From positions 236 through 64,235 of the forward strand of contig JAAEQW010000006.1 of the NCBI GenBank assembly GCA_024231025.1: a DNA stretch of 64,000 nucleotides, given 5' to 3'. The notes beneath the pieces are model-generated. The model was not told where the DNA came from, ran no database searches, and worked only from the letters and a program-made list of their open reading frames with translations. Position 1 is the first letter of the stretch, and the number at the start of each line of letters is the position of its first letter. Source of the DNA: Candidatus Omnitrophota bacterium (lineage in GTDB: Bacteria > Omnitrophota > Gorgyraeia > Duberdicusellales > 4484-171). Both the position numbers and the translations under genes were made by a program. This document shows, in pieces, positions 19,850 to 63,840 of this stretch.

Positions 19850-20308
19850 TTAACTATTCTCGAATTTTTTAATAACTCCAACAACATCTTTTGGAGTTGT
19901 TGTAGCTAGCAGCTCTTCGCGAAAAGCATTATTCATTAATAATTTTGAGAGCTCCGCCAATACACGCATATAAAAATTTAACTCTTTTGGGTCGGCGCCC
20001 ATTAGAAAAATTAATTTTACAGGCTGACCATCTAACGCCTTAAAATCGACCCCTTCCTTTGACTTAGCAAAACCAATAACAAAACCTTTCACTGCATCGG
20101 TACGAGCATGAGGAATGCCCACATTATTGCCAATACCGGTAGAGCCCAGGGCTTCTCTTTCTAAAACATCGGCAATGAATTTGTTTTCATCAACAACGTT
20201 ACCGCCGCACTTTACTTTATCGGCAATCTCTTTAATTATTTCATCTTTGCCCTGTGCTACCAAATCCATACAGCAGCATTCTTCTTTTAAGTAATCTGAA
20301 ACTCTCAT
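19850..20308 (-). CDS. ptsN: PTS EIIA type-2 (fructose/nitrogen family) regulatory protein, PtsN-like
   Basis: GIGNNVGIPHARTD contains the conserved phospho-His. The size (152 aa) and the absence of any IIB/IIC partner suggest a regulatory PtsN-like protein. Confidence 0.6.
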   Translation of the reverse strand: MRVSDYLKEECCCMDLVAQGKDEIIKEIADKVKCGGNVVDENKFIADVLEREALGSTGIGNNVGIPHARTDAVKGFVIGFAKSKEGVDFKALDGQPVKLIFLMGADPKELNFYMRVLAELSKLLMNNAFREELLATTTPKDVVGVIKKFENS

Positions 20309-24157: not shown

Positions 24158-26335
24158 CTATTTGACTAATAGCTCAGCGGTTTCAACGATCCTGATAAAC
24201 TCAGCTCGATAACCATTTTCATCAGCTCCCTTAGCGGTTTTTGCCCTAATTAATACCTGGCCATAACTTGCATTCGCCTTATGCTCCGAGTTTCTAAGCA
24301 ACATACCGAATTCAGCAACGCTAGAAGCAAAATTATAATTATTAGAAATTTCCCATTCTTGAGAAGCACTGACTTTATTGGTTATTAGCTTACTCACGTC
24401 TTCATCGGGTTTCTTGTAACGCAATTTAACGGTCATTAGGTCATCACTTTTGGCTACTGTAGTTTGCTGATAAGTTAGTGCATCGACTTTACCAAACTCT
24501 TCCTTAGAGGCAGCTGGTACTATCTCATAAAGTGCGGTTACGCGATGCCCTGCGCCCAATTCTCCAGCATCTTTTTTGTCATCATTGAAATCTTCTTTTT
24601 TAAGCATCCTGTTCTCATAACCAATCAAACGATAAGCCTTAACTTTTGATGGATTAAACTCAATCTGAATCTTTACATCTTTTGCAATTGTGAGTAGCGT
24701 TCCTGTTAGTTGTTTAACAAAAACTTTTTTGGCTTCTAGCAGGTTGTCAATGTAGGCATAATTACCATTGCCTTTATCAGCGATGCCCTCCATCTTAGAG
24801 TCTTTGTAATTACCTGCACCAAATCCTAAAGCAGTTAAGAATATACCTTTGTCGCGATTGGCCTCAATTAGCCTAACCATCTCAGCATTACTACTTGCTC
24901 CGACATTGAAATCGCCATCGGTAGCAAGAATTACTCGGTTGTTACCATCTTTAAGAAAGTTTTCTTCTGCAATCTTATATGCAAGTTTAATGCCTGCTCC
25001 ACCGGCAGTAGAACCACCAGCGGATAGATTATCGATTGCCCGAGAAATGCTTTCTTTTTCGTTACCTGGTGTAGAGTCAAGCACCATCCCTGCTGCTCCG
25101 GCATAAACAACAATTGACACTCTATCTTCTTGACGCAGTTGCTTAACCAGTAGCTTGAATGCTTGCTTTAATAAAGGTAGCTTTTGCGCATTGTTCATTG
25201 ACCCGGATACATCAATAAGAAAAACTAAGTTGTTTGACGGCACATCTTCCATTGGAACCTCTTTACCTTGCAAACCAACTAAAGCTAACTTATGATCACT
25301 ATTCCAAGGACAGATTCCAACTTCACTTATAATTGAAAATGGATCATCACCTGTAGGTTGTGGATACTGGTAATCAAAGTAATTAATCATCTCCTCAATT
25401 CGCACCGCATCCTTAGGTGGAAGCCTTCTCTGGTCCATGATGTAGCGACGAGTATTGGCATAGGATGCAGTATCAACATCAATTGAGAATGTAGAAAGCG
25501 GATTCTCAAGAGCCTCTAGAAAATCATTCTCATAAATTCTGTCATAGCCCTCGGTATTTGATTGTTCTTGGTAACCAAGACCATCTTCTGCGACTGAAAG
25601 ATTCGTAAGGCTCTGAAATCTCATGCCTGCATCAGAGAATGATGCCCCAAAATCTACGATTGATGTCTCGTATGGTACATAATTTTCTGCAGATAAATTT
25701 CCTGTTACTTTACCACCGTGTGGTACAATATGGCGGCTATCGCTTCGGTTTGTACTACCTTTAAAAACTATCGAGTCTTTTTTCAAAGCTGTAAAATCTT
25801 TCCAATTTTTACCCGACGCAGCCATAGAAACCTTAGGTCTTTTCGCAGAACCAAGTGAAAAAGCACCTGCAACTGGCTCTTTCTCATCGACAACAGCAGA
25901 ATAACCTTTTAGGTTGGATTTTTTGTTTTCACTGTCAAGGACTCCATTATCAACAATCCTCTGAGTAGAGCCTAACATCTTCCCCTGAAAACCTTTTTTT
26001 ATGAAAGTTTGAGAACCAACCATCACAAACACCAACATCATAACTAAAGCCACGGATCCGGCACTAATAAAAATTTTCTTTCTCATTGCCATCACCCCCT
26101 TATATTTATCACCTAAAAAATCCTGCTTAATTTTCTGCTCTAAATCCAGTGAGATTTCCTCATCTTTGTACGAAGGAAGAATATCTGACATTTTTTTCAG
26201 CTGTTGATAATAGTCATTGCAGTTTTTACAGCTTTTTAAATGCCCTCTTAGTGCCTCTCTTTGATTAAAAGAAACTTCTCCGTCAATATAAGCAGAAATT
26301 AACTTTTTCATCCCCAAACATGTAAACTTCATCTT
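24158..26335 (-). CDS. Anti-sigma factor (zf-HC2) fused to a single TM, a von Willebrand factor A domain and a YfbK/DUF3520-like C-terminus
   Basis: The N-terminus has the CLGMKKLISAYIDGE...HLKSCKNCN anti-sigma zinc finger. One TM segment follows. The vWA MIDAS motif is VFLIDVSGSMN...ATDGDFNVG. The likely start at 26335 abuts the ECF sigma stop. Confidence 0.65.
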   Translation of the reverse strand, partial: KMKFTCLGMKKLISAYIDGEVSFNQREALRGHLKSCKNCNDYYQQLKKMSDILPSYKDEEISLDLEQKIKQDFLGDKYKGVMAMRKKIFISAGSVALVMMLVFVMVGSQTFIKKGFQGKMLGSTQRIVDNGVLDSENKKSNLKGYSAVVDEKEPVAGAFSLGSAKRPKVSMAASGKNWKDFTALKKDSIVFKGSTNRSDSRHIVPHGGKVTGNLSAENYVPYETSIVDFGASFSDAGMRFQSLTNLSVAEDGLGYQEQSNTEGYDRIYENDFLEALENPLSTFSIDVDTASYANTRRYIMDQRRLPPKDAVRIEEMINYFDYQYPQPTGDDPFSIISEVGICPWNSDHKLALVGLQGKEVPMEDVPSNNLVFLIDVSGSMNNAQKLPLLKQAFKLLVKQLRQEDRVSIVVYAGAAGMVLDSTPGNEKESISRAIDNLSAGGSTAGGAGIKLAYKIAEENFLKDGNNRVILATDGDFNVGASSNAEMVRLIEANRDKGIFLTALGFGAGNYKDSKMEGIADKGNGNYAYIDNLLEAKKVFVKQLTGTLLTIAKDVKIQIEFNPSKVKAYRLIGYENRMLKKEDFNDDKKDAGELGAGHRVTALYEIVPAASKEEFGKVDALTYQQTTVAKSDDLMTVKLRYKKPDEDVSKLITNKVSASQEWEISNNYNFASSVAEFGMLLRNSEHKANASYGQVLIRAKTAKGADENGYRAEFIRIVETAELLVK

Positions 26336-26925
26336 GCCTCCTCTATAAGGGGTAATAGATCCTTTCTTAATCTTTCCCTCCCCCGAAAAATAAGGACCTT
26401 CACCTTGCTTATAGTACAACTTAAAACAGAACTAATTTCCTGATAGCTTAGCTGCTGATACTCTCGCAGGATTAAAGCTTCTCGTAAATTAAGAGGAAGT
26501 TTGTTGATTGCTCTTTTTACGAACAAAGCGTTGTCGGATTTTTCAGCATTTTCATCAGGCAAATTCTTAAAATCGGGAATATCCCATTGTTTATATTCTT
26601 TATCGTTTTTATCCTGTTTACTCCAAATAAAAACGATTCTTTTCTTTTTTCGAATTATGTTAATGCAAACATTATGCGCAATCGTATAAAGCCAAGTTGA
26701 AAACTTTGCGCCTTTTTTAGGAGTGTATGAATCTTTCTTGTTGGTAAGAATGTAGAACGTTTCGCCAACAGCATCTTCGGCATCGGCCCGATTGTTTAAA
26801 ATGCGAAAAGCATAATTAAGAATCGGTTTTTTGTATCTTTGGAAAATCTCTTCTAATGCGTCTAGATTGCCTAATTTATAGTCGGTCATGAGTGCCTCGT
26901 CTGGTTTTTTCATTTCTTCTCTCAT
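26329..26925 (-). CDS. ECF-subfamily RNA polymerase sigma-70 factor
   Basis: Sigma region 2 (ILNYAFRILNNRADAEDAVGETF) and region 4 (LSYQEISSVLSCTISKVK) are both present. Confidence 0.8.
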   Translation of the reverse strand: MREEMKKPDEALMTDYKLGNLDALEEIFQRYKKPILNYAFRILNNRADAEDAVGETFYILTNKKDSYTPKKGAKFSTWLYTIAHNVCINIIRKKKRIVFIWSKQDKNDKEYKQWDIPDFKNLPDENAEKSDNALFVKRAINKLPLNLREALILREYQQLSYQEISSVLSCTISKVKVLIFRGRERLRKDLLPLIEEAR

Positions 26926-33456: not shown

Positions 33457-33684
33457 AACATATCAAATAACCAAATAGGTCAGAAAATTAAAGGGCTGCG
33501 CATTAAAGCAAAATTAACTCAAAAAGATTTTGCTTGTAAAGCCGATGTAAAATATACAGCCCTGACAAAAATCGAAAGCGGAATTATAAAAAGCCCTTTT
33601 GTGCAAGTAATAGTCAAGATTGCCAAAGCCTTGAATGCTTCTATAGAAAAATTTACTGTCTTCTTGAAACCGCTTACAAAATAG
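33457..33684 (+). CDS. Small XRE/Cro-type helix-turn-helix protein (~70 aa), open frame lacking a canonical start codon
   Basis: The in-frame translation IGQKIKGLRIKAKLTQKDFACKADVKYTALTKIESGIIKSPFVQVIVKIAKALNASIEKF matches the HTH_XRE pattern. No ATG, GTG or TTG precedes the domain, so it is either ATA/ATT-initiated or a pseudogene. It ends inside the palindrome upstream of P1. Confidence 0.4.
   Translation, partial: NISNNQIGQKIKGLRIKAKLTQKDFACKADVKYTALTKIESGIIKSPFVQVIVKIAKALNASIEKFTVFLKPLTK
33664..33681 (+). promoter_or_regulatory. Imperfect copy of the family palindrome (TTGaAA-ccgc-TTACAAAA) about 90 nt upstream of P1
   Basis: It differs by one base from the TTGTAA-N4-TTACAA sites upstream of P2 to P4, in the same gene-relative orientation. 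A separate TTGAAT-N18-TATATT promoter-like pair lies closer to the start. Confidence 0.45.
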
Positions 33685-33762
33685 TACGAATAATCCCCTG
33701 ATTTGCTTGAATTTTTACCTTCTGAAATGGTATATTTTAGTGAATAGGGTAGTGATTAATTT

Positions 33763-36700
33763 ATGAGTCAAAACCGAAATTTACTATTTAAAAAAGCTTC
33801 TATATCTTTCAGGGCAATCGGCACATTTGTTGCAATAGCCTTTGTTGGTAGTATCTTTCTATCTAATTTACCAAAACAACAAAGTATACCTGAAGCTTCT
33901 ACTGTTTATAATCTACCCTCGCCTACTGAAATATTACCTTTGTCAAAAGAGTATTCTTATCCATTACTGAAAGGGATCCGCTTTGATCCCAAAAACCCTT
34001 TAAATCTTGAATTTATTATCGATACCACCAATGAAAGTGATGTTGGCGAAGAAGAAGCTTCTCGTCTTGTAAAGTATTTTTTAGCTGGATTGACCCTTCC
34101 TGAAAAGGACTTGTGGGTTAATTTATCACCTTACGAGAAGACAAGAGTTGCTTCAGACAACTTGGCATTAACAGATTTAGGAAAAGATATGTTAAATCAG
34201 GATTATGTTCTAAAGCAACTTCTTTCTTCTCTCACTTATCCCGAAAGTAAAGTAGGCAGAGATTATTGGCAAAAAACTTACCAAGAAATAGCTAAAACTA
34301 TCGGTACAACCAATATCCCAATTAACACTTTCAATAAAGTCTGGATTGTGCCTAATAAATGTGTTCTTTATGAAAGCGGTAATGCAGCGTTTGTGAAAGA
34401 GGCAAGCATGAAGGCGTTGATAGAGCAAGATTACACTGCTTTGCAAGGTAACCAGCCATCAGGCAATAGACAACAGGTTGTAGACCAAAACAAAGTGGAA
34501 AAGATTATATCGCGGATAATGAAAGAGACAGTTTTGCCAAAAGTGCAAGACGATATTAATCATGGAGAGAATTTTGCAACTTTAAGACAAATATACCACT
34601 CTATGGTTTTGGCAATATGGTTTAAGCAGAAGTTTAAACAGTCGTTTTACAAGTATTACATTAATCAAGAGAAGGTTGGTGGAATCGATTTAGAAGATAA
34701 AGATGTTAAAGAAAAAATTTATAATCTTTATGTTGAAGCCTATAAAAAAGGCGTGTATGACTACATTAAAAAAGATTATGACGTCTCTGGAAGGAAATAT
34801 TTAAATCGAAGATATTATTCCGGCGGCATTAATGTGCCGACACAGGAAACGGTTGATGTGATAAGAATTGGTGAACTAGAAAAGAAGGTCTTAGAGCTCG
34901 AGCAACAAGGCGAGTATAAAAAGGTAAAGACTTTATGCGCGGTTTATAGTGAAACTCAACATCAAAAAGATGATACGTTAATAGATAAAGCCTATAAGGC
35001 TGGGAATTTCCGGAGAGTCGATGATGACGTAATTGATGAAGTAAGCGTATTATTTCGAGAATTAGGCGAAAATGGCGAACTTATAGCCCAGAAGCTAGAT
35101 GATCTTAGAAAGCAAGGGGGAATAAATCTTGTATTGGGTATTCCTCATTCCCATGCAGGCGGTAAAGGTATTCATATACAAGTTGGTGATTTACACAAAG
35201 TTAACAAAAATTACGTACGAGATAAGTTAATCCATGAAGCAATAGCCGGCACAATTTTTGGCCATTCAGGTAAAGTGCATAATTTGGCGATAGGTGTGGT
35301 AGAAGCACTAAATAGGGATACAGCAGAAGCAAGAAGGGTTTTAAATGAACTCGAAGGATTTTCTTTTGCTGAAGATGGTAAAGTCTTATGGGAAATGACG
35401 CAAGCCGAACGTGATGGGTTAGTTAGAGATTATGCAAACGCGGCACATAAATTAGAGAATCTAACTTTGTCTTTAGAAGAAGTAGAGAAAGTAGACGCTC
35501 TTTTTGATGAAAAAATCAAAAAGGGGCTGGAGAAGATATATTCAAACATCAAAAGAGGTGTGTCTTTTCGGCAAGTACTGGAACATTTCGCCTCCGAAGA
35601 TACTCCTATTGGAGAGGAAAGGCTAGTTCATAGCACAGATGAGATTGTTCTGGATATGTTGCGGGATGATTCATTGTATCCTGAAGGAATTGAAGTTCGG
35701 TTTTTACGGATACGTGAGACTAACGATTGGATATTAATAAAATGCAGAGAAACTGAACTATATCGACGTGGGATCTCTGATGTCCCGGGGTCGATGCAAC
35801 CTCTCTTTATGCCGTATAAGGAGAATCAAGCTGCAATGCATTATTACTTCGATATCGATATTCATAGCCATAACGACGACCAACCACTCCCAAATATCCG
35901 TGATCTTTGGGAGTGCTATTCGAGAAGTTCGGGGCAGCAATCACTGTTTTTGATCAAAGGAAGAAAGGGAGTAACCGCAATAAATTTAACCAAGGCGGTT
36001 GGCCGAGTAACTGACGATGATTTCAAAGTGATTTTATGTAATGTAGTGCGAGATTTACAAAACATGCTGACGAAGAGGGAAGATGAAACGATATCTCCTC
36101 ACGAAAAAACACCAAGAATTTTTATCGAAGCTGCGCTGGATCAGTTAGAAAAGCACGAGGACTTATTAACCCGAAAATTTATTCCATGGTCTGATTTTAC
36201 TTTAGATCATTTAAAAAGTCGGTCGTTTCAACTAAGTGATGTTTTGCAATCGCAGGATAGGGGGGAACAGAGACTGGCGGCAATTGCAGTTCTTCGGGTT
36301 TTATCAACGCAGGTTAATTATGATTTTAAAGTGGCGATGTTTCGAAAAATAATTGATGTTTCCGACTGGAAGTTTCAATTACAAATTCTCGACGTTCTTT
36401 ACCGTTACTTTGAACCCGGACAAGAAATGAACAATGCTTATGATTTATTTTTGCAGTTGCCATCGCCGATTGTCCAAGCTGTGGCCAGCTTGCAAGGTTC
36501 ATCAAATGCACTTTTTGATCGCCATGGAACAAGAAAGTCTCGAAAAGTTATTGATGACGAAGCAACCGTTATGGCTGATGAGTTTTTGACATATAAGATT
36601 AAAATCATGTTGTCGAATAGCCTAAGTAATAGCTTGACTATTGCGGCCAGTTTGGACGAAGAAGATCTGGCGCAAATCGACAGGGAGCTCTTGCTGCAGT

Positions 36701-37614
36701 ACCTTGATCGACTAACTAAAGCCGGAATAAGCCGAGAAGGAAAGCAAGATGTGTTGGTTCTTTGCGCAAGGCACCTTAGAGAAGAGTGGGGTTTAGGCGA
36801 TACAGAAGATAAGGAATTAAGTGACCCGAAAGTATCACAGCGAGAGAACCACGATAATAAACTTGAGCACATATATAAACAGAATCCCAATAATGTAACC
36901 GCGGTGCTTCCGTGGACTACAAAGGAAGTGGTTGAGCTATTTCGCAAAATAGATGATGACGGGCAGTGCCCGTTGGCGAGCAAGCTTGCTGATAAAATAG
37001 AGTTGTTACTGGGAAGTCGAGATCCATTGAGATCTCAAGGCAGGTATTTTAGTAGAGACGGAAAAAAGATCATTAGAAGCCGGATCAACATTGTCCGCGG
37101 CATTGACCGCTCTCATGCTGGGGGAATGGGGATAAATATTATGGCTCGAGAAATTAGGCCGATAGACGAGGATGAAAAATATATTAAGGGAACTATTATT
37201 CACGAAGCAGTCGCGGGTACAATTTTTGGCGATTCTGAAAAAGTGCATAATTTAGGACTGGAGTTAGAACGAGCATTAATTAATGGAAGATTTGGTATAG
37301 CAGCTGATTTATTAAATAGCCTCTCTGGTGTTGCCCCGCATCCATCTGGCCGTGCGCTTTGGGAAATGACTCAGGAACAAAGGAATGAATTGGGCAGAGA
37401 CTATGCAAGCCCAAATGATATCGATGATGCTGGATTTGGTGGGTTAGATTTGACTGCTGATTCTTTTGCTATACAAATCGAAGGCGAGAACGAAAATATT
37501 GAATCTGGTGAATCTTTTTACCAGGATTTTGATCGGCTCAGTTTAAAAGATGTATTTATTGAAGATATCTCTTCTTCTGAACTCGCCCAGAGCTTCTTCC
37601 CAAATAATAATTAA
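33763..37614 (+). CDS. P1: 1283-aa signal-anchored envelope protein with a family-specific N-domain and two internal ~110-aa repeats carrying SHAGG and HEAxAGTIFG motifs
   Basis: An N-terminal TM helix is followed by the conserved domain (YNLPSPTEILPLSKEYSYPLLKG...NRRYYSGG). Repeats lie at aa ~455-565 and ~1095-1215. The acidic C-terminus carries GGLDLTADSF. Confidence 0.7.
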   Translation: MSQNRNLLFKKASISFRAIGTFVAIAFVGSIFLSNLPKQQSIPEASTVYNLPSPTEILPLSKEYSYPLLKGIRFDPKNPLNLEFIIDTTNESDVGEEEASRLVKYFLAGLTLPEKDLWVNLSPYEKTRVASDNLALTDLGKDMLNQDYVLKQLLSSLTYPESKVGRDYWQKTYQEIAKTIGTTNIPINTFNKVWIVPNKCVLYESGNAAFVKEASMKALIEQDYTALQGNQPSGNRQQVVDQNKVEKIISRIMKETVLPKVQDDINHGENFATLRQIYHSMVLAIWFKQKFKQSFYKYYINQEKVGGIDLEDKDVKEKIYNLYVEAYKKGVYDYIKKDYDVSGRKYLNRRYYSGGINVPTQETVDVIRIGELEKKVLELEQQGEYKKVKTLCAVYSETQHQKDDTLIDKAYKAGNFRRVDDDVIDEVSVLFRELGENGELIAQKLDDLRKQGGINLVLGIPHSHAGGKGIHIQVGDLHKVNKNYVRDKLIHEAIAGTIFGHSGKVHNLAIGVVEALNRDTAEARRVLNELEGFSFAEDGKVLWEMTQAERDGLVRDYANAAHKLENLTLSLEEVEKVDALFDEKIKKGLEKIYSNIKRGVSFRQVLEHFASEDTPIGEERLVHSTDEIVLDMLRDDSLYPEGIEVRFLRIRETNDWILIKCRETELYRRGISDVPGSMQPLFMPYKENQAAMHYYFDIDIHSHNDDQPLPNIRDLWECYSRSSGQQSLFLIKGRKGVTAINLTKAVGRVTDDDFKVILCNVVRDLQNMLTKREDETISPHEKTPRIFIEAALDQLEKHEDLLTRKFIPWSDFTLDHLKSRSFQLSDVLQSQDRGEQRLAAIAVLRVLSTQVNYDFKVAMFRKIIDVSDWKFQLQILDVLYRYFEPGQEMNNAYDLFLQLPSPIVQAVASLQGSSNALFDRHGTRKSRKVIDDEATVMADEFLTYKIKIMLSNSLSNSLTIAASLDEEDLAQIDRELLLQYLDRLTKAGISREGKQDVLVLCARHLREEWGLGDTEDKELSDPKVSQRENHDNKLEHIYKQNPNNVTAVLPWTTKEVVELFRKIDDDGQCPLASKLADKIELLLGSRDPLRSQGRYFSRDGKKIIRSRINIVRGIDRSHAGGMGINIMAREIRPIDEDEKYIKGTIIHEAVAGTIFGDSEKVHNLGLELERALINGRFGIAADLLNSLSGVAPHPSGRALWEMTQEQRNELGRDYASPNDIDDAGFGGLDLTADSFAIQIEGENENIESGESFYQDFDRLSLKDVFIEDISSSELAQSFFPNNN

Positions 37615-51125: not shown

Positions 51126-53726
51126 TTAGAAAGATTCTGAATAGTGTTGGGGGATACTTTCAATCTCTTCTGTGTGGTGGACAGTAAAGTTAATGCCTTT
51201 TAATTCGCTGGGGGGGAATAAAAGAAGAGGCTGATTCGCATAAATATTATAATCAAAGCTGCCTTTACGCTTAATTTTGGTTTCCAAATCAATGCCGCCA
51301 TGAGAACCATCTTTTAGGGCCGAACCCATATCTTTGCCCTGAACATCTTCCGCTCTTTTTGCAGGATCGGTTATTCCTGCTGGAAGATTATCTAACTGTG
51401 TGGCATTAAATGAATGTGAGCTAGAAGCAAAATACATACTCTCCATCATGTATTTTAACCGAGTTGGACCAGTCGGATCAGGTAAAAAGGTACCTCTTTC
51501 TCGATCGTAATTTAAATATAAACATCCCCAGCTACCATCATTATTATCAATAGCAATCTGCAAAAAAGTATCATTATATCCTTTCGGAAAAGATGGCGTT
51601 GGTTCATTTTTATCTGAACCAATACCGAGTCCCCACATACGTCCGAAATGCGTCGGAGATAAATTAGCGACTTCACCTTCTAAAAATAATGTGTGTGTTT
51701 TTTGTTGACCAGTTGCAGGGTCAACTGTATCATACATAACCTTAGTATACTTTTTACCGTCATACTCATAACCATAAGCAGCAAAATAACGCAAGGCAAT
51801 CGCCTCTAACGTCTTGTCACCCATCGAATAATCTATTTCGGCCTCAAACTCCAAATCAAGTCCATAAACAGTTTCGGTTGGACTTATCTTTTCTGCTCTG
51901 TGTTGCAGATACTGCTCATATGCACGAACTGTGCCCTCAGGAATTCTCTGCGCTTTGGCCTGAGTTTCAGTAATCAGACCCTCTTTTAACGATTCGTCTA
52001 CAGCCATGTTGTGAGAAAACATCCAATTATACCCTCGCTTTCGCCAATGCAATTCTACGGTATCGTGGAAAATTTCTTTATATAAATCATCTTCACTCAA
52101 TTCTTCCAAGTCAACCTCAAAGCAAATAATTATTACTCGTCCATCGTCGGTGATAATATTAATTGTCTGCAACCCATCTTCACGGATTACTGTTTCTTTT
52201 AATCTTTGAATTAACGGACTATTTCCAACTAGTGATAATGGGATCACCTCAACATCTGCTGAATCCAAAACCTTAACTTTTTGCCATTTGCCATCAGCCG
52301 TTTCCATAAAGACTTCGTTCTTATGCCCCCATGCATTATCCACTGATGCAAAGGCTCCCTTTAAAGCATTGATCCGGTTAAGGTTTCTTCTTATTCCTAA
52401 ATTGGGGTCGTGGGTATCGCTATTTTCATCAGTTGCTGCAAGCAATTTTAATATTAAATCGCGCTCATCTTGTTCATCGGAATCCGGAATTAATTCGCGT
52501 ACCGCATTCACAAAACCATGCCTTACAGATATGTCTCCTCTGATGTTTCCTCCTACATCCGGCGTACCATCTCCGGTAATTTTTAATGGGTCACCCTTAA
52601 CATTTTCCCCTATCGCTTTTGCCGCTCCTTGGGAACGTGTGCTCTTTTTTTCGATTCTTTCACTGCATGCAAGAGTAGCTCCGCCAGAATAATACTTTCT
52701 GCGAATAGGCTTATGAGATCCGACGTTTCTTTCTCGTTTGATAAAATTATAAACCCCCTTCTCATAGGCGAGATTATACTGTTCGTACACCTTTTCTTTA
52801 ATCTGAGAATCAGAACACTCTACGCCAGCAATCTTTTTCTGATCGGTATAAATTTGATTTAAAAGTGCGGTCTTTAAATGATTCTTATACCATAAAGCTA
52901 AAATAACCGAGTTTACTGCCTGCCTTATCGGAGTAAAAGATCGATTACGATTAACTTCTTGTTCTACTTCAGGTAAAATAATTTCTTTGGTTATTTGTGC
53001 AGAAATGCTCTGAGCATCTTCACTTTTTTTATCGACCCCTTTTCTAAGATAATCTTTGCTTCTCCTCATCGCCAAATAATCTGCCTCTAATAATACTTTC
53101 AACTTCGGTTTAGTAAGAAATGCTTTATTTCCATCTTCGTATACCACGATTTCCTCAGGCTTAATCCACACTTTGTTAAAAGTACTAATTGGAATGTTTG
53201 TAGTACCAAATTTTTTATAAACTTCTTGGTGTACGTTTTGCCAAAAAGTTTTACCCGGCTCTTCCTCTGGATAAGTTAAGGATGCCATTAGTTGTTTTAA
53301 AAGATAATCTTGAGTTAATAATTCTTTACCCAGGGTAGTTTTACCTAGTTCATCCGGAATAATCCGGTTACTCTCGTAAGGTGATAAGTTTACCCAAAGA
53401 TCCTCCTCAGGAATAGTTAAAGCAGCAAAAAAATACTCAATAAGCTCATCGGCTTTCTGTTTGACTTGATCCTTAGTTAGATCTCGATTATCACCGGTAT
53501 CAAGTATAAAACTAAACCGCCAAGGATTATTTTTGTCAATTTCAATGCCTACTAATATTGGCGGATTGCAAAGGCTAGTGGTTCTAACCATTCCCTCTGG
53601 TAGTGGCAGACTTTTTGAGGAATCACTAGAAGACACAGGGCTACTACACCCCAACAAAATCACCAAAAAACCACCGATCAAGGATTTAAAACAATTGCCT
53701 GAAAACACATTCTCTGTCATATACAA
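51126..53726 (-). CDS. P2: 866-aa predicted lipoprotein carrying the family N-domain and a unique C-terminal region
   Basis: It has the lipobox LVILLGC. The N-domain (LCNPPILVGIEIDKNNPWRFSFILDTG...RRKYYSGG) is about 45% identical to P1, P3 and P4 by eye. The C-terminus carries GGIDLETK. Confidence 0.7.
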   Translation of the reverse strand: MYMTENVFSGNCFKSLIGGFLVILLGCSSPVSSSDSSKSLPLPEGMVRTTSLCNPPILVGIEIDKNNPWRFSFILDTGDNRDLTKDQVKQKADELIEYFFAALTIPEEDLWVNLSPYESNRIIPDELGKTTLGKELLTQDYLLKQLMASLTYPEEEPGKTFWQNVHQEVYKKFGTTNIPISTFNKVWIKPEEIVVYEDGNKAFLTKPKLKVLLEADYLAMRRSKDYLRKGVDKKSEDAQSISAQITKEIILPEVEQEVNRNRSFTPIRQAVNSVILALWYKNHLKTALLNQIYTDQKKIAGVECSDSQIKEKVYEQYNLAYEKGVYNFIKRERNVGSHKPIRRKYYSGGATLACSERIEKKSTRSQGAAKAIGENVKGDPLKITGDGTPDVGGNIRGDISVRHGFVNAVRELIPDSDEQDERDLILKLLAATDENSDTHDPNLGIRRNLNRINALKGAFASVDNAWGHKNEVFMETADGKWQKVKVLDSADVEVIPLSLVGNSPLIQRLKETVIREDGLQTINIITDDGRVIIICFEVDLEELSEDDLYKEIFHDTVELHWRKRGYNWMFSHNMAVDESLKEGLITETQAKAQRIPEGTVRAYEQYLQHRAEKISPTETVYGLDLEFEAEIDYSMGDKTLEAIALRYFAAYGYEYDGKKYTKVMYDTVDPATGQQKTHTLFLEGEVANLSPTHFGRMWGLGIGSDKNEPTPSFPKGYNDTFLQIAIDNNDGSWGCLYLNYDRERGTFLPDPTGPTRLKYMMESMYFASSSHSFNATQLDNLPAGITDPAKRAEDVQGKDMGSALKDGSHGGIDLETKIKRKGSFDYNIYANQPLLLFPPSELKGINFTVHHTEEIESIPQHYSESF

Positions 53727-53778
53727 TTAATACCATTTTAATGGAACAAAAGCTATAAAATGGAGTGGTTTTTTAGGG

Positions 53779-53802
53779 TTTTTTGTAAGCGGTTACAAAA
53801 AA
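53779..53802. promoter_or_regulatory. Palindrome TTTTTTGTAA-gcgg-TTACAAAAAA, 64 nt upstream of P2
   Basis: It has perfect 10-bp arms. In gene orientation TTGTAA-N17-TAAAAA resembles a -35/-10 pair. It sits within a ~75-nt block conserved with the P4 leader. Confidence 0.55.
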
Positions 53803-53874
53803 TAAAAAATTGGCAGCATCGTCAGAGACGCTTTGAAATTAATCGGAGAATTTGTAAGGGGTTAAAGAATTTAT

Positions 53875-56800
53875 TTACTTCCAGGAATTTACGGCAAGGT
53901 CATCGATAAATTCATAAGGGGATATATCACCCATGAAGGTAATTTCAAAAGTAAGCGTATCAAAATCCCCATCAATTATACGTAGGGGCGGGCCTTGTGT
54001 CCGCCCGTAATCTTCATCAAGACCTTCACCAACGGTTTCTAAATTAAAAGAATCTTGGGTTACATCAATACCGCCAACGCTATTAGCAGAAGGAGTATCC
54101 ACCTCTTTAACCTTATCGCCCTTATCTTGAAAATCAACAATCATATCTGCTGTAACTACATATAAGGCTTTAACTAGCTCTTGTAATGGCAGAGGACCAT
54201 TTACCGGACCTAAATCAGGATTAACATCATCAAAGTAATATCCTCTTTTTCCGTCTTTTTCCATAGTCTTAAAGCCTCTTGATCCTTCGTAACTTTCAGA
54301 ATAATCTGGGTTAACTTCATATAGTTCACTACGAATAGAATTCTTTATTAAATCATCTGCATATTCATCACCCTCTGCCATAAAATAAGCCATCTGTTTA
54401 GCTAGACGCTCCCAATTGATTAAATCAATTGTTCTGCCTGAAGCTTGCCTGCCACTAAAGCTAGTGTAGGCTTGCTCAAACATCTCTTTCATTATGCTTT
54501 GTAACTGATTGATACTTTCTATACTATCTATATCAAGCTGGTTGGTCTCTCTAAGATAACTACCAATCATAAGAGTTGAGGCAAAAAGATAATCTCCCAG
54601 ATAGCTTGCAAGGTAAAAGTTAGAAGCACTAGGACCAAATCTTTGTAGCGAATGTAGAATATCAGGTACATCTTTATTGCTAGGATTGGCTATATCCTCA
54701 AGATTAAAAACATTTGCAAAATCAGCTACTCCAGAAATTCTAGAATTAGGGTACTTAACTGAACTAGGCCAAGCATGAAGTCTTCCTGTGCCAGAACGAC
54801 TCATTACTTGTTGAATAATTGCAATCATCCATTGAAATCTTCTATTTTGGCCAAGGTTATGGAAGAGTTCAATTAAATCAGTATGGAGCAATCCGTGTCT
54901 ACCTAAGACAAAGAGATCATGGATTGAAGTCAAAAGAGCACCCTTGAACTGCTCAATATCTAATTCGCTATCGTTAAGATAAGTTAAGTAATCTTCATTA
55001 TCCAGTTCATAGGCCATAAGGGTGTAATGCTTATACCTATGGTCTGGGGTTAGAGCTTCTCCTTCCTTGCTGGCTTGACCATTAAGCGCCGCTAAGGCAC
55101 CCTCCGACAAAGAAGCAACTCTGTTTACTCTTTGACCATTTACTAATAAAGCTTTTGGGTATTGGCCTTTAAGCCCTAAATTGCCTTTATGCTGATAGAT
55201 ATATTCGATAAGCTGATGTTCATAAAACAAATCGTTAGGGTTTTCTTTATCCTTAAGGACTTTGACGCATAAAATCTTACCTTCCCTAGTTTTGTAAACC
55301 AAAGTTCTACCTTGAGCACGTAACAAAACAGCACCTTCTAGAAAACCGTCAAGACTATCTAATTTAGAAAACTCTTTTAACTGCCTAGCTTGTTTTTGAG
55401 GCAATTCAGAAGGTAAAACCTCTAGTTTAGGCGGCTGATTATCGCTTAATGCTGCTTCGCTATAAGTATTGTAGTTAGCCGGAGAATCTCCACCATCGCT
55501 AAAATCAATTGCATACAATCTAAAGGCCTGACGCATTAATTCAATGCTAATATCTCTCTCCTTTTTTCGCAAGTATTGAGCAAATTTAAAGAAATAACGG
55601 CTATCGTTCATAGCGCTATCAGCATCAGACATCCTTACACGCGATAACAAAACTAACTGCATCTCATCTTCCAAGGCTTCTAAAGCTTGATCAGGTGACA
55701 CACCATCTGTTATCATTTTGGCTAACTGAGAGTAAAATCTATCCTGATCTCCAGCTTCTCGAGCAAATCGATATATCCACTCAAATTCAGGAGTAAAGTA
55801 TTCGCTAGCTCTTTTTAAGGCTTGCGGGTCATCCTTTAATTCCTTTAAGAGCCTTATAAACGAATTAACAAAAATATTATCTAACTTTTTGCCACATATA
55901 GCTAAATAAGCATCTTTTAATTCCTTATAGCTAAATCCTTTTATATCTTCTTCACTAATTAAACCTGATTCTTTTAACGCATTTACTGCACGAGCAGCTG
56001 AATTTTGCTTTTGCCGATTTGAATTAGCTAAATCACCTATAAAAGTATTTATTGGGAGTCTACTCCTCACCTCATCCCTACTAATCAAACCAGTTTCGAT
56101 CAATGCCTTCATTAACCCGGCAGACATCTCTGGAACATGTTGATCTAGGCTAGTTAGATTAGTAATCAAATTACTTAATAACGGTTCATTCTTTATATCA
56201 TCCTCAGCAATCAATCCTGCTTCTGCCAATGTTTTTATTTTTGCAATGGCCGCATCTCTAACTTGCCAGCTTGAATCGATTATGTCACTAACCAAAGTAT
56301 CCATTGGAAACCTACTCTTTACTTCATTACTTTTAATAGATCCGATCTCTGCAACTGTTTCAGTAATTACTTGTTGCTCGTACCAATACGAATCAGTTAC
56401 CTTGCTAGCCAAAAGATCTATTGGAAGATCTGCTGGAAGTTCATCTTTCACTTCATCTCTACTAATCGAACCAGCCCTAATTAACGCTTCTATTACCCGA
56501 ACAGCTGCATCTTCAACGTCCGTGTATTGACTTTTTGAGGCAATGATTAGCTTGCTCAACAATGAATTATTTTTCATATCATCCTCGGTGATTAATCCAG
56601 CTTCTATCAAGGCTTCTAATGCCAAAAGGACTTGTTTTTTTGTTGATGGTATTAATCCATTAAGCTTATTTATTAAGATATCCAGCATTGGTATATCCTC
56701 AATATCATCTTTGCTAATAAGACCTGCACGTGCTAGCGCACTTATTGTCGAAACCCCACCAATTATCTCTAGCTGATTAAAACTACTCAAACGAATCACT

Positions 56801-58194
56801 AAATTATCTAAGGTCTCTAACCAAGCTACGGACCTTTCAATCTTAACCGCTTCTTCTTCAGACAAAGACTCACTACCCACAACACCATAATCAGTAATTT
56901 TACGACCTGATACCTGCTCTATGTGCTGAGTTGTTTGTTCTTTTTTGCGAGATTTTTCTCCGGGTAGATTCTTAGCACCTTTATGAATATCAGAACCTAG
57001 CCCCACCAAATCACCTATATCTCTAGCAATAGAAACTCCTTTGGGCAATTCAGTAACTACTTGCTGAAAATCTTCAACTTTCTTGTCAAAAAGAACACCA
57101 CCAGAATAATACCTTCTATTTAGTTTTTTATTAGTTGCAGGATCGTAATCTCTTCTTACGTAGTTATAAACACCCTTCTTATAGGCTTCGACATAGAGAT
57201 TGTAGATTTTCTCCTTTGCGCCCTTGTCCTCTAAGCCAATGCCCGAAATTTTGCCTTGGTCAATGTAATCTTTGTAAAAACTATCCTTAAATTTCTTTCT
57301 AAACCAGACTGCCAATACAAGTGCGTGGTATATTTGACGCAAAGTAGCAAAGTTTTCGCCATGGTTTACTTCCTGATTTATTTTAGGAAGAATTGTTTCA
57401 TTGAATATTTGGGATGTTATTTGGTCTATTTGATCTGGGGACTGTCCCATTTTTTTCGCAGAAAAAATAGGGACTGTCCCCTCTCTTAGGGAATTTTGCT
57501 GCACTGCAACATAGTCACGCTGATGCATAACCTTTAGGCTCGCTTCCAAAATAAATGCCGTGTTTGCCTTTTCATAGACAACACTTTTCTCCGGCATAAT
57601 CCAAACCTTATTATAAGTATTGATTGGCATATCCGATGTGCCAAATTGATCAGCTAATTGTTGATAAACCTGTTGCCAATATTCTTTGCCAGTTTCACTT
57701 TCGGGATAGGTTAAAGAAGAGACGAGTTGCTTCAAACAATAATCTTGCCCTAACATGTCTTTACCAAGATCAGTCAAAGCAAGATTGCCTGAAGCAACTC
57801 GGTCTTCTTCGTGTGGAGATAAGTTAACCCATAACTCCCCTTGCGGGAGGGTTAATCCAGCTAAAAAATATCTAATAAGCCGCGAGGCTTCTTCGCGGCT
57901 TACATTGTCCTTACTAGAGGTATCAACAATAAATTCGATATTTAAAGGATTCTTGGGACTAAATCGTAGCCCCTTAAGCAATGGATATGAGTAATCTTTC
58001 GATAATGGAAGCAACTTAGTCGGCAGCGGTAAACCATAAACCGCAGCTTGCGCAGTCCTGAGCTTGCCGAAGGAGAGTTGGCGATTACGCAATATTGTAG
58101 GCAGTATAATACCTACAAAAATAGCTATAGCTAAAAATATAGCAATAAATTTAAACGGAATTGTACCTTTTCGTAATATCTTTACATGAGCCAT
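53875..58194 (-). CDS. P3: 1439-aa signal-anchored protein with the family N-domain, about six ~35-aa helical (HEAT/ARM-like) repeats and the shared C-terminal tail
   Basis: An N-terminal TM helix is followed by the N-domain (...KKLNRRYYSGG). Repeats of the form GLI(S/T)xDD/EV(K/R)...L occur at aa ~480-760. The C-terminus carries VGGIDVTQDSFNLETVGEG. Confidence 0.7.
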   Translation of the reverse strand: MAHVKILRKGTIPFKFIAIFLAIAIFVGIILPTILRNRQLSFGKLRTAQAAVYGLPLPTKLLPLSKDYSYPLLKGLRFSPKNPLNIEFIVDTSSKDNVSREEASRLIRYFLAGLTLPQGELWVNLSPHEEDRVASGNLALTDLGKDMLGQDYCLKQLVSSLTYPESETGKEYWQQVYQQLADQFGTSDMPINTYNKVWIMPEKSVVYEKANTAFILEASLKVMHQRDYVAVQQNSLREGTVPIFSAKKMGQSPDQIDQITSQIFNETILPKINQEVNHGENFATLRQIYHALVLAVWFRKKFKDSFYKDYIDQGKISGIGLEDKGAKEKIYNLYVEAYKKGVYNYVRRDYDPATNKKLNRRYYSGGVLFDKKVEDFQQVVTELPKGVSIARDIGDLVGLGSDIHKGAKNLPGEKSRKKEQTTQHIEQVSGRKITDYGVVGSESLSEEEAVKIERSVAWLETLDNLVIRLSSFNQLEIIGGVSTISALARAGLISKDDIEDIPMLDILINKLNGLIPSTKKQVLLALEALIEAGLITEDDMKNNSLLSKLIIASKSQYTDVEDAAVRVIEALIRAGSISRDEVKDELPADLPIDLLASKVTDSYWYEQQVITETVAEIGSIKSNEVKSRFPMDTLVSDIIDSSWQVRDAAIAKIKTLAEAGLIAEDDIKNEPLLSNLITNLTSLDQHVPEMSAGLMKALIETGLISRDEVRSRLPINTFIGDLANSNRQKQNSAARAVNALKESGLISEEDIKGFSYKELKDAYLAICGKKLDNIFVNSFIRLLKELKDDPQALKRASEYFTPEFEWIYRFAREAGDQDRFYSQLAKMITDGVSPDQALEALEDEMQLVLLSRVRMSDADSAMNDSRYFFKFAQYLRKKERDISIELMRQAFRLYAIDFSDGGDSPANYNTYSEAALSDNQPPKLEVLPSELPQKQARQLKEFSKLDSLDGFLEGAVLLRAQGRTLVYKTREGKILCVKVLKDKENPNDLFYEHQLIEYIYQHKGNLGLKGQYPKALLVNGQRVNRVASLSEGALAALNGQASKEGEALTPDHRYKHYTLMAYELDNEDYLTYLNDSELDIEQFKGALLTSIHDLFVLGRHGLLHTDLIELFHNLGQNRRFQWMIAIIQQVMSRSGTGRLHAWPSSVKYPNSRISGVADFANVFNLEDIANPSNKDVPDILHSLQRFGPSASNFYLASYLGDYLFASTLMIGSYLRETNQLDIDSIESINQLQSIMKEMFEQAYTSFSGRQASGRTIDLINWERLAKQMAYFMAEGDEYADDLIKNSIRSELYEVNPDYSESYEGSRGFKTMEKDGKRGYYFDDVNPDLGPVNGPLPLQELVKALYVVTADMIVDFQDKGDKVKEVDTPSANSVGGIDVTQDSFNLETVGEGLDEDYGRTQGPPLRIIDGDFDTLTFEITFMGDISPYEFIDDLAVNSWK

Positions 58195-58280
58195 GACTTA
58201 TCTCCACATAAGTATGCCTACCATATATAAGTAACATTTCTGCATGTTATAAATCAAGAGAAAATGCTGATTTTATTGGG

Positions 58281-58302
58281 TTTTTTGTAAGCGGTTACAA
58301 AA
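58281..58302. promoter_or_regulatory. Palindrome TTTTTTGTAA-gcgg-TTACAAAAG, 98 nt upstream of P3
   Basis: It has the same core and the same orientation relative to the gene as the P2 and P4 sites. Confidence 0.55.
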
Positions 58303-58345
58303 GATGGTTTTCTAATCGGGGGACAGCTACCCTATTTAAACGAGA

Positions 58346-58403
58346 GTTACTCATCGCCTCCCCTGCCGCAGACATAAAAAATCCGCCCTAAAAAAGGACG
58401 GAT
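58346..58403 (-). terminator. Family repeat block containing a rho-independent terminator (ATCCGCCC-taaaaaa-GGACGGAT plus T-run on the minus strand)
   Basis: It is one of three near-identical copies of GTTACTCATC(A/G)CCTCCCCT(A/G)CCGCAGACATAAAAAATCCG(T/C)CCTAAAAAAGGACGGAT. It lies downstream of the 131-aa gene and upstream of P3. Confidence 0.6.
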
Positions 58404-58465
58404 ATCTTTAAGCGTTATTTCAAACAATTAAAGTAAATCAGATTTAATTTGAAGAAGATTTTTTT

Positions 58466-62800: not shown

Positions 62801-63398
62801 CTTTATTGAATGTATCTATGGGAATATTTGTTGTGCCAATGGCTTTATGTATCTTCTTATATATTTTATTCCAATACCTCTTGCCTAACTCATTTTCAGG
62901 GTAGGTCAAAGTAGATACCAGTTGCTTTAAAATGTAATCTTCTTTTAATAAGTCTTTGCCTAAATCAGTTATTGCCAGGTTATCGGAGGTTACCCTGTCT
63001 TGTTCGTGGGGCGATAAGTTTACCCATAAATCTTCTTCGGGTATCGTAAGCGCAGCTAAAAAATAATTAACCAGTCTGATCATCTCTTTGTCGCTTATAT
63101 CCTCTTGGTCAGCTGGATCAATTATAAACTCAAACTTGAAAGGATCATTTGGATCGATCTTTAATCCTTTTAGTGATGGTTGCGAATGCACTTTAGAAAG
63201 AGGCACTAATGTTGTAGGTGCAGGTAAATTATATACCGATTCTTTAGCTGTTTGGATAGACTTTAACCGCAACAGATTAGGCCTACTAGCAGTCATAAAA
63301 ACCAAGCTAATCATTATGCAAGCTGCCACTCCTAAACATGCAAATTCAAATAATGTAGTGCCTTTTTTCATAATATTTACCCTAGAGTATCGTATCAT
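59883..63398 (-). CDS. P4: 1171-aa signal-anchored protein with the family N-domain and a C-terminal region carrying GxxH...GAxH motifs (tentatively TIKI/ChaN-like)
   Basis: An N-terminal TM helix is followed by the N-domain (...KKVNRRYYSGG). The C-terminal region has ILFMGDMHDNGD...LIGAFHV. An alternative start lies at 63371 (MKKGTT). Confidence 0.65.
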   Translation of the reverse strand: MIRYSRVNIMKKGTTLFEFACLGVAACIMISLVFMTASRPNLLRLKSIQTAKESVYNLPAPTTLVPLSKVHSQPSLKGLKIDPNDPFKFEFIIDPADQEDISDKEMIRLVNYFLAALTIPEEDLWVNLSPHEQDRVTSDNLAITDLGKDLLKEDYILKQLVSTLTYPENELGKRYWNKIYKKIHKAIGTTNIPIDTFNKVWIVPETAELVEKGNIVLIDETKLKAMSEEDYLALSKPLNHKQSIVDGNQEEINKISSQVLKEIILPEIERDVNEGENFATLRQMYDSFVLACWFKKKLKDSVFQYYIDQGKIEGIDIADKDAKEKIFNLYVDAYKKGVYDYIKKDYDQASRKKVNRRYYSGGHVLKDVTETRPDAGEIKAAAGMPTKLVEIANIDNFTESGQGYMAICRDGRTLTPEQNEVVKKIAAAYREELDKELLERALSISELYPDGGGAYGIHDPQGILMKKGIKIYLLRDFINNTQALATVSRVGAIEDLMAFIDVENNTLYVDWDMHTEIVENYYSDWRAAWAQYVLATLEYADPKINASEEMPSFPQQRLPGMEEGNSVIKKNLALLRESIEADNFTIIGDGGSAITNRGVIQLDFDIETGDIVSIFPGYSQQGDSMLFVLSPTGMLKKNANDNRAIPINLSKAVERYNEELKRWRKEAPFTSFTYTIESDRISKGGDYELIPDALYEQVLNSLREEGYEEKYRKVNEHTLRKADAGDALTITIRRIDDYHIEGEITNKEGALRISWWSSLKKISGQQQEQSVSNTSSNGKSMLDRNIEKVIDPPDMPTKVAERRDVDDLWNNYDDAAARLIRNQEPVNYRKILGNRQILFMGDMHDNGDISEHLARHAKEFKEMGITHLAVETHKTKNIDDLNEGQAVTLTHAEVGPNVREEELVRAFVAVGIKIVQIDIDQQKHNPTEGEREEYLCQELEEVLEENKDFRVVVLIGAFHVNSEINTIEKVPSVRARIEEVGYSIATVDFAGGDASVPFALVDSARRAGIETNTFMIDLREDHKQGVTFLGDFDFVVHLSQARGRKSHISGLSPMGVVLLNSWGRDKTPFKSHNPGGEHTNKGEKYFAESEEYLPQRDWKSLLSAGTEEKKQPNNGLGGIVLDDLVKADGTIKYNWSPKLINRFKNLKGIRVSTIRDGKGVKALLEKEKTRN

Positions 63399-63453
63399 TA
63401 AGAAATACCATTTTAATGGGGCAAAAGCTATAAAATAGAGTGATTTTTTAGGG

Positions 63454-63477
63454 TTTTTTGTAAGCGGTTACAAAAAA
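63454..63477. promoter_or_regulatory. Palindrome TTTTTTGTAA-gcgg-TTACAAAAAA, 67 nt upstream of P4
   Basis: It is identical to the P2 site. The surrounding ~75 nt (63406-63479) are near-identical to 53731-53804. Confidence 0.55.
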
Positions 63478-63495
63478 TAGCTTTTTTAATCGGGG

Positions 63496-63583
63496 GTTAC
63501 TCATCACCTCCCCTACCGCAGACATAAAAAATCCGTCCTAAAAAAGGACGGATGTTTTTTATATGGCGGAGAGGGAGGGAATC
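63496..63583 (-). repeat. Family repeat block copy 2: terminator hairpin plus a ~20-nt duplicate of the tRNA-Ser(UGA) 3' end
   Basis: Positions 63496-63583 match 63681-63768 almost base for base, including TGGCGGAGAGGGAGGGA (the tRNA 3' end) at 63564-63580. The terminator stem is at 63531-63553 and is followed by a T-run. Confidence 0.65.
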
Positions 63584-63680
63584 CGTTCCCGAACTTTGTT
63601 CGGGATCCGGGAACCATAAAATGTAATAGCCTATATAACTGGGGTTACAAACCCCTTTTTCGCTTTGCTCAAAAACGGGG

Positions 63681-63768
63681 GTTACTCATCACCTCCCCTA
63701 CCGCAGACATAAAAAATCCGTCCTAAAAAAGGACGGATTTTTTTTATATGGCGGAGAGGGAGGGATTC
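63681..63768 (-). terminator. Family repeat block copy 3 with rho-independent terminator immediately 3' of tRNA-Ser(UGA)
   Basis: The perfect hairpin ATCCGTCC-taaaaaa-GGACGGAT at 63716-63738 is followed by T7-8. It abuts the tRNA 3' end at 63749. Confidence 0.65.
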
Positions 63769-63840
63769 GAACCCCCGGTGAGTTTAACCCCACAACGGTT
63801 TTCAAGACCGCCGCGTTCAACCAGGCTCTGCCACCTCTCC
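63749..63840 (-). tRNA. tRNA-Ser(UGA), 92 nt with encoded CCA
   Basis: The minus-strand acceptor stem is GGAGAGG/CCTCTCC. The anticodon arm is GCGGT-CTTGAAA-ACCGT. A long variable arm is present, and the T-loop is TTCGAAT. Confidence 0.85.

Follow-up and report, generated by a model that had tools for sequence, protein, structure and literature searches.

A CG-centred palindrome ahead of a multi-copy protein family is a probable operator in Candidatus Omnitrophota

Operators of the LacI/GalR family (lacO, the purR boxes, galOE/OI) are even palindromes, 14–24 bp long, that conserve a CG at the centre of an AAnCGnTT core, and among described systems they come closest to the element reported here, a palindrome at positions 53779–53802 of a 64,000-nucleotide stretch of a Candidatus Omnitrophota genome (contig JAAEQW010000006.1; the whole stretch is called the window below). 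Copies of this palindrome precede four paralogous genes, P1 to P4, and related sites recur ahead of their homologs in other genomes of the phylum. Judged from sequence, the palindrome is probably the operator of a dimeric helix-turn-helix (HTH) factor controlling a multi-copy family of secreted or membrane-anchored Omnitrophota proteins. Operators as a kind of element are well known, but in the Omnitrophota literature that we searched nothing was found on gene regulation, and the regulon, its spread across the phylum, the target family and two classes of site position were not described there and are new relative to it.

In the described systems the GalR operator OE lies at −60.5, and lacO1 offers a precedent for repression from a position like +16. 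CcpA and Cra, two LacI-family regulators, are activators when their sites are upstream and repressors when the site overlaps the promoter or comes after it. Class I activators of the CRP type occupy sites at −61.5 and −71.5, and CRP sites read TGTGA-N6-TCACA with a spacer whose sequence is not conserved; in CRP/FNR-type sites generally, two 5-bp arms flank such a spacer, N6 for CRP and N4 for FNR. The CcpA cre consensus of Firmicutes, said to go back to work by Weickert and Chambliss in 1990, is reportedly TGWAANCGNTNWCA. In a comparative survey, even palindromes make up 1251 of 1303 LacI-family motifs and a central CG is present in 1173 of the 1303; more than 75% of LacI-family sites lie 30–140 bp before a start codon, most local LacI-family regulators are autoregulated, and the usual LacI regulon consists of sugar-utilisation genes (PMC4052901).

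The window palindrome shares the LacI/GalR form: it is an even inverted repeat reaching 20–24 bp where about 14–22 bp is typical of such operators, a CG lies on its axis, and the four centres are 64.5–98.5 nt before the listed start codons, in agreement with the 64 to 98 nt given in the initial annotation of this DNA. It differs from LacI/GalR systems in its targets, which are large secreted proteins and not sugar catabolic operons, in having one site per gene with no detectable second operator for looping, and in its host, since LacI regulons have not been described in Omnitrophota. Looking for a further, GalR OI-like operator beyond the four starts, we found only a two-mismatch match at 53700 with a noise-level score. 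Unlike CRP sites, the palindrome has 5-N4-5 spacing with a conserved central CG, and its GNAA/TTNC arms match neither TGTGA nor TTGAT, so that it does not belong with CRP/FNR sites. The 14-bp window core TGTAAGCGGTTACA fits the Firmicutes cre consensus at all specified positions; the usual Omnitrophota form, in contrast, starts with A (AGAAA...) and not with TG, and its regulon seems to be one family rather than a global one. Neither a CcpA homolog, within the 64 kb or the 0.55 Mb of flanking Omnitrophota DNA, nor evidence of CcpA/HPr-Ser-P was found, and we did not file the site as cre because the host is a Candidatus Omnitrophota bacterium and not a Firmicute with CcpA and HPr(Ser-P).

Palindrome copies in the window and across Omnitrophota

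The four paralogs and their candidate operator copies are as follows.

33763–37614, plus strand: paralog P1, 1283 aa, shared N-terminal domain and unique C-terminus
51126–53726, minus strand: paralog P4, 866 aa, with an LLGC lipobox
53875–58194, minus strand: paralog P2, 1439 aa
59883–63398, minus strand: paralog P3, 1171 aa, likely true start at ATG 63371 (MKKGTT...)
33664–33679: candidate operator of P1, TTGAAACCGCTTACAA; 14-bp core 33665–33678, axis 33671.5, overlapping the end of an open reading frame (ORF) for an XRE-type protein
53779–53802: candidate operator of P4 (lipoprotein-like), a 24-bp perfect palindrome; 14-bp core 53784–53797, axis 53790.5
58281–58302: candidate operator of P2; 14-bp core 58286–58299, axis 58292.5
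63454–63477: candidate operator of P3; 14-bp core 63459–63472, axis 63465.5

Pattern searches and reading of the sequence located TTGTAAGCGGTTACAA exactly at 53783–53798, 58285–58300 and 63458–63473, and with one mismatch at 33664–33679, giving one copy ahead of each paralog. In gene orientation all four read ...AACCGCTT..., and thus they share one orientation relative to the gene in 4/4 cases. The initial annotation had described cores identical in sequence and orientation and a one-mismatch copy upstream of P1, both of which we recovered. At P4 and P3, TTTTTTGTAAGCGGTTACAAAAAA (53779–53802 and 63454–63477) has perfect 10-bp arms; in P2 the right arm of TTTTTTGTAAGCGGTTACAAAA is 8 bp long, and the perfect palindrome spans 58283–58302; in P1 TTGAAACCGCTTACAA carries a single arm mismatch (T to A) and falls within the final codons of the XRE ORF. 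Measured from its centre, the palindrome is 91.5 nt from the listed start of P1 (33763) and 98.5 nt from that of P2 (58194); for P3 the figure is 67.5 nt to 63398, or 94.5 nt if the likelier ATG at 63371 is taken, and for P4 64.5 nt to TTG 53726 or 70.5 nt to ATG 53720.

At up to one mismatch TTGTAANNNNTTACAA was found at 4 places in the window against 0.73 expected, a count reached in 2 of 100 shuffles. Between copies the 24-nt core is 79–100% identical, compared with 24–35% for the 55 nt upstream and 40–51% for the 70 nt downstream. The P3/P4 pair is the exception, with 76% identity over the downstream 70 nt and a recently homogenised 76-nt repeat at 95% identity. The palindrome copies are thus islands of conservation within diverged flanks, which we regard as a stronger argument for a functional site than the count of chance matches. 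Exact matches to the generalised 14-mer introduced below occur between genes of the window at the four paralog sites only; one more, at 22512, is inside coding sequence. Three matches to a phylum-wide weight matrix (9040, 14177 and 25493) score higher than the paralog sites and were rejected as chance, being in coding sequence and within the range of shuffled DNA.

For comparison with other genomes we used the 80 best homolog loci, the upstream regions of 79 homologs from other genomes serving for the motif count. The literal TTGTAA-N4-TTACAA, allowed up to two mismatches, gave nothing consistently positioned in the 80 loci. Unbiased counts of 8-mers in 76 homolog upstream regions returned AAACGTTT, AAAACGTT and GAAAACGT together with the promoter words CTTGTTTT, ATATGTTA and TATACTT, and only after this step did a relation to the window motif emerge; a search for CG-centred palindromes then found AGAAAACGTTTTCT-like sites in many homolog loci. 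The generalised 14-mer NGNAANCGNTTNCN covers both the usual form, AGAAARCGYTTTCT, and the window form, TGTAACCGCTTACA, and by this comparison of sequences we consider the window site to be a local variant of a phylum-wide 14-bp even palindrome. Exact matches to NGNAANCGNTTNCN were distributed as follows.

Upstream windows, 24 kb: 19 matches (0.79 per kb)
Elsewhere in the loci, 467 kb: 6 matches (0.013 per kb)
Dinucleotide-shuffled versions of these upstream windows (300 shuffles): 0.32 matches on average, 3 at most
Control windows shifted upstream by 700 nt (−1100 to −790): 0 matches

One of the six matches elsewhere (locus L073) stands 19 nt before a CTTGTTTT −35 element just after a family gene and probably belongs to another tandem paralog. 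The initial annotation had proposed a genome-wide scan as a check on whether the motif is common or concentrated on this family; to the extent of the 64 kb and 0.47 Mb of related DNA covered here, the motif is rare and concentrated on the paralog family.

With the centre left free (G.AA-Nx-TT.C), enrichment was clear only at x = 4, x = 0 being about two-fold. A CG occupied the centre in 19 of 29 upstream G.AA-N4-TT.C matches, the other 10 corresponding to the background expectation, and it lies on the axis in 4/4 window copies. Arm pairs 2/13, 4/11, 5/10 and 7/8, which the search pattern fixes, are complementary in 28–31 of 31 sites, and the free pair 3/12 in 21 of 31. Positions that the pattern does not impose are biased and symmetric, with A3/T12 in most lineages and T3/A12 in the window lineage; intermediate forms are TGAAAGCGTTTACA in L004, among the closest relatives, and TGAAACCGCTTACA in P1. 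The closest complete genome, CP070684.1 (locus L081, 62% amino acid identity), carries TTGTAATCGCTTCCAA upstream of its homolog at about −60.5. Conservation across the phylum, symmetric variation of the arms and the fixed promoter distances described below argue for a shared cis-regulatory site of a dimeric DNA-binding protein, as the initial annotation had proposed. The motif would then define a regulon by sequence alone, joining hundreds of genes that could not otherwise be annotated.

Candidate regulators

The exact 20-mer TTTTGTAAGCGGTTACAAAA had 5 matches in 241 million metagenome records. Three of the five are on high-GC contigs from outside Omnitrophota (L083 333–352, L084 3881–3900 and L085 2610–2629), each preceding by 36–60 bp a full-length LacI-family gene that clears the thresholds of PF00356 (LacI) and PF13377 (Peripla_BP_3); the genes represent two lineages, L083 and L084 sharing 77% identity and L083 and L085 32%. 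This suggests that TTTTGTAAGCGGTTACAAAA is a widely reused LacI operator sequence, and speaks indirectly for its use as an operator by proteins of that family. Because the 20-mer stands in the autoregulatory position of LacI-family genes, and because the motif, an even palindrome that conserves a CG on its axis and has xGxAAxCGxTTxCx as its core, shows the architecture of LacI/GalR operators, a LacI-type regulator is the leading candidate here. We tentatively assign the site to such a regulator, encoded outside the 64-kb window, with somewhat less than even confidence. LacI-type operator architecture may accordingly have been recruited to non-sugar targets in Omnitrophota, and the 24-mer would be a concrete bait for finding the regulator and its signal.

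Unlike LacI/GalR systems, however, the locus has no detectable cognate gene: a regular expression for the LacI HTH signature and tblastn, applied to the window and the 0.55 Mb of Omnitrophota flanks, and Pfam/NCBIfam searches of the window found no LacI-family gene. This result fits a regulator of another kind, either a different dimeric HTH protein or one specific to Omnitrophota, which would have the same operator function and a merely convergent resemblance to LacI sites, as does the fact that the targets are not the sugar-utilisation genes of the usual LacI regulon (PMC4052901). Such convergence would have to account for an even palindrome with a conserved central CG, which is a LacI hallmark, and for an identical 20-mer that stands, in two unrelated LacI lineages, where an autoregulatory site would lie, and we consider it doubtful, though a serious contender.

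Promoter position and alternative explanations

A generic sigma-70 scorer was noisy in this A/T-rich DNA and was replaced by a scorer tuned to cTTGttt-17-TGnTATACT, after the recurrent promoter type of the homologs (cTTGttt-16/18-TGnTATACT), with its output checked by reading the sequence. In a downstream class of 10 loci the motif centre lies at +7.5 to +19.5 (7 of them at +15.5 to +17.5), and the promoters have both the TTG and the TG extension in 10/10. In an upstream class 8–10 loci, L081 among them, have the centre at −60.5 to −62.5, L074 and P1 have it at −71.5, and single loci have it at −79.5 and −111.5; only 3/13 of these promoters have both elements. Both classes are present in one genome (CAYJXI01), at −60.5 in L049 and +15.5 in L059. 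The putative promoters and terminators of the window are listed below.

33707–33736, plus strand: putative P1 promoter, TTGAAT, 18-nt spacer, TG-extended TATATT (call of the generic scan); operator centre at about −71.5
53727–53735, minus strand: putative extended −10 of P4, TGgTATTAA; operator centre 58.5 nt upstream of its first T
58228–58257, minus strand: putative P2 promoter, TTGATT (58257–58252), 18-nt spacer, TGtTACTTA (58236–58228); operator at about −71.5
63402–63410, minus strand: putative extended −10 of P3, TGgTATTTC; operator centre at about −70.5
58381–58403, minus strand: intrinsic terminator upstream of the P2 operator, called by the terminator scan
63531–63553, minus strand: intrinsic terminator between tRNA-Ser and the P3 operator, −14 kcal/mol

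The block AAATGgTA, 58.5–59.5 nt downstream of the axis, is the only other block that is invariant in the four window upstream regions, and it fits the extended −10 type of homologs in other Omnitrophota; the −35 hexamers of P3 and P4 are poor. The window operator is therefore likely to be centred at about −70.5/−71.5, upstream of the promoter and not on it, which corrects the placement on a −35 element in the initial annotation. Terminators precede the P2 and P3 sites and a weak hairpin (53815–53832) lies ahead of the P4 site; every gene would thus be transcribed separately, and the site is unlikely to be part of a transcript. Since the predicted transcript start of P4 is at about ATG 53720, its mRNA may be leaderless or nearly so. 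Flanking the window site are A-tracts, AAAAAACCCTAAAAAA from about −64 to −49, that are reminiscent of an UP element and would suit activation as well as repression.

From the conservation, enrichment and positions observed we infer a dimeric regulator that would bind the palindrome. In the window, where the site abuts the UP-like A-rich stretch, this regulator would act through the alpha subunit of RNA polymerase rather than by occluding a −35 element, either as an activator of the class I type or as a repressor in the manner of GalR at OE, whose −60.5 position we liken to the −60.5/−61.5 class here. As with class I CRP sites, the −60.5/−61.5 and −71.5 clusters are one helical turn apart, and the promoters downstream of the sites are often missing a −35 or a TG extension. 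A motif at about +16 of strong promoters would lead to repression as at lacO1, and one at −61/−71 of weaker promoters to contacts with the alpha subunit. Because the same motif stands at about +16 of strong promoters and at −60.5/−61.5 of weaker ones, the factor is probably a dual regulator, and the two position classes mirror the upstream activation and downstream repression of CcpA and Cra. That a single regulator, LacI-like or new, governs the entire expanded family of secreted proteins with variable C-termini across Omnitrophota, activating the −61/−71 paralogs and repressing the +16 paralogs of the same genome, is, by our estimate, unlikely; if true, one signal, which might come from a host or prey, would swap the set of surface or effector proteins made, and the motif would give experiments their first usable handle on lifestyle genes in an uncultured and reportedly host-dependent phylum.

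Several points weigh against the operator proposed here and its placement. The window genes are paralogous, and for this reason the identity among their palindrome copies is not independent evidence. A recognisable site is present in only about 25–35% of homolog loci, and the 14-mer was derived from the same loci that were used for the enrichment, although the k-mer step that preceded it was unbiased. The absence of a LacI-family gene from the DNA searched counts against a LacI-type factor. All promoter distances depend on transcript starts that are predictions, the proposed −10 hexamers of P2 to P4 (TACTTA, TATTTC and TATTAA) have no canonical final T, and an alternative −10, C/GATACT, would shift the site to −86.5/−88.5.

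Two further elements were noted near these promoters. The long 5′ leader after a downstream-class motif often has GCCACGG 30–60 nt on (L001, L008, L012, L013, L045, L077 and L079); it occurs 8 times in the 24 kb of upstream windows and about 20 times in the 467 kb elsewhere, is absent from the window paralogs, and in L001 pairs with a CCGTGGC followed by a T-run, which has the look of a leader terminator or attenuator. A small palindrome, CCATTTTAATGG, overlaps the putative TG-extended −10 at 53733–53744 (P4) and 63408–63419 (P3) and is absent at P1 and P2; it may be an additional operator or may just belong to the 76-nt repeat of P3 and P4.

In the initial annotation the palindrome overlapped the −35 element of a TTGTAA-N17-TAAAAA promoter, where a repressor, possibly the XRE-type protein encoded at 33457–33684, would block polymerase. 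The promoter must indeed sit between the upstream terminators and the start codon, a region that includes the palindrome, and TTGTAA-17-TAAAAA or AATAAA is present in P2 to P4, with the correction that AATAAA belongs to the 1439-aa P2 and not to the 1171-aa gene. However, the conserved final T is missing from this −10, P1 has CGAATA in its place, and the promoter scan passed it over, calling for P1 the downstream TTGAAT-18-TG-TATATT instead. Nor does the arrangement have a parallel elsewhere: in the loci of other genomes with clear, strong promoters the site is never on the −35, and the TTGTAA-17 promoter has no counterpart.

The XRE ORF does encode a genuine HTH_3 domain, and NCBI annotates a 74-aa product (P0121). 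Its homologs, however, are 66–67 aa long and stop short of the palindrome-overlapping tail, so that the last approximately 8 codons over the palindrome appear to be a lineage-specific extension. The homologs sit beside unrelated small genes (SHOCT, T5orf172) in mobile-looking contexts, and neither the motif nor the paralog family is present in their loci; conversely, an XRE-like gene lies in the flank of 1 of the 80 family loci (L052, E = 4e-5), which has no upstream motif. The XRE gene showed no conserved linkage to site or target, and we rejected it as a conserved partner, its proposed role as regulator being unsupported; occlusion of a −35 element as a whole we regard as quite improbable. 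Read at 33460–33684, the ORF does not open with ATG, GTG or TTG; its best start candidate is ATA 33460, behind AAGGA at a suitable distance.

A recombinase might instead use the palindrome as a crossover site, with 11-bp half-sites around a symmetric CG, to delete, invert or exchange tandem paralog cassettes. Three identical copies in the same orientation do flank tandem paralogs with variable C-termini, and nearby duplications of the tRNA-Ser 3′ end suggest past integration. Yet Pfam and NCBIfam scans found no recombinase gene in the 64-kb window, and each gene has one site rather than the flanking pair of an invertible promoter. In other genomes the site is single-copy and at fixed promoter distances, which recombination would not require, and its consensus varies symmetrically between lineages as an operator would. 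A crossover site is accordingly highly improbable.

Inert relics copied with gene duplication, and of no function, would explain part of the similarity, which reflects recent duplication or gene conversion given the 95% identity of the P3 and P4 upstream regions over 76 nt. For the other pairs, however, the upstream flanks have fallen to a random level of identity next to the conserved core, and the proteins have diverged as well, the other paralogs sharing only 24–32% full-length identity with P4 and N-terminal domains 42–63% identical to that of P2; together with the recurrence of the motif in distant genomes, this leaves the relic explanation barely tenable and already largely refuted.

Least credible of all is an RNA hairpin acting as terminator, attenuator or stability element, for although the window 24-mer folds at −5.2 kcal/mol (z = −4.9) and the motif, at +8 to +20, is transcribed in about 10 other genomes, the stem is A/U-only but for one G-C pair and is followed by no U-tract, unlike the G+C-rich stem and U-run of an intrinsic terminator, the phylum consensus reaches −1.6 kcal/mol against −14 for a true terminator nearby, and in about half of the loci, probably including the window, the site is preceded by a terminator and followed by the promoter, and so is not transcribed. 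The terminator scan that called true terminators nearby did not call the palindrome, and the view of the initial annotation that it is not a terminator stands.

Paralog family and genomic surroundings

All four paralogs have in common a domain of about 350 aa that follows a signal or anchor sequence and includes the motifs LWVNLSPxE, KVWI.P and YYSGG; their C-terminal regions are unrelated. For the family as a whole, the N-terminal domain is confidently modelled and about 300 aa long. Pfam gave nothing above cut-offs for any part of the four proteins, and no solved structural relative of the N-terminal domain was found. Named homologs of this domain are all hypothetical proteins of Candidatus Omnitrophota/Omnitrophica metagenome-assembled genomes, and a degenerate-pattern scan with one genome per species counted at least 581 family relatives, often several per genome. 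The layout of a conserved N-terminus with unrelated C-termini resembles that of polymorphic secreted effectors; the C-terminus of P3 has a sub-threshold match to HopBA1 (E = 0.006).

The rest of the window is ordinary chromosome, with genes for transketolase, HisG, fumarase, QueC, MgtE, LptF/G, SmpB, DusB, an ECF sigma/anti-sigma pair and tRNAs; Rfam identified three tRNAs and nothing else. The ECF sigma factor gene (26329–26925) overlaps that of a zf-HC2 anti-sigma protein with VWA and YfbK_C domains (24158–26419), and a PTS EIIA-2 (PtsN-like) gene lies at 19850–20308; the motif is absent from all three.

A tRNA-Ser gene adjoins both P1 and P3. A unit of about 96 nt is present in three copies (63488–63583, 63673–63768 and 58338–58433). 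Its components are the 3′-terminal 20 nt of tRNA-Ser(TGA), the sequence ATGTCTGCGGTAGGGGAGGTGATGAGTAACCCCC and a strong terminator hairpin made up of ATCCGTCC-TTTTTT-AGGACGGAT and a T-run. At 63564–63583 the tRNA-Ser 3′ end is repeated 185 nt from the real gene (63749–63840), which has the look of an integration scar or a tandem duplication. Also within the unit is a strong Shine-Dalgarno-like GGGGAGGTGAT; the ATG after it starts a short ORF, which enters the palindrome in frames that differ between P2 and P3.

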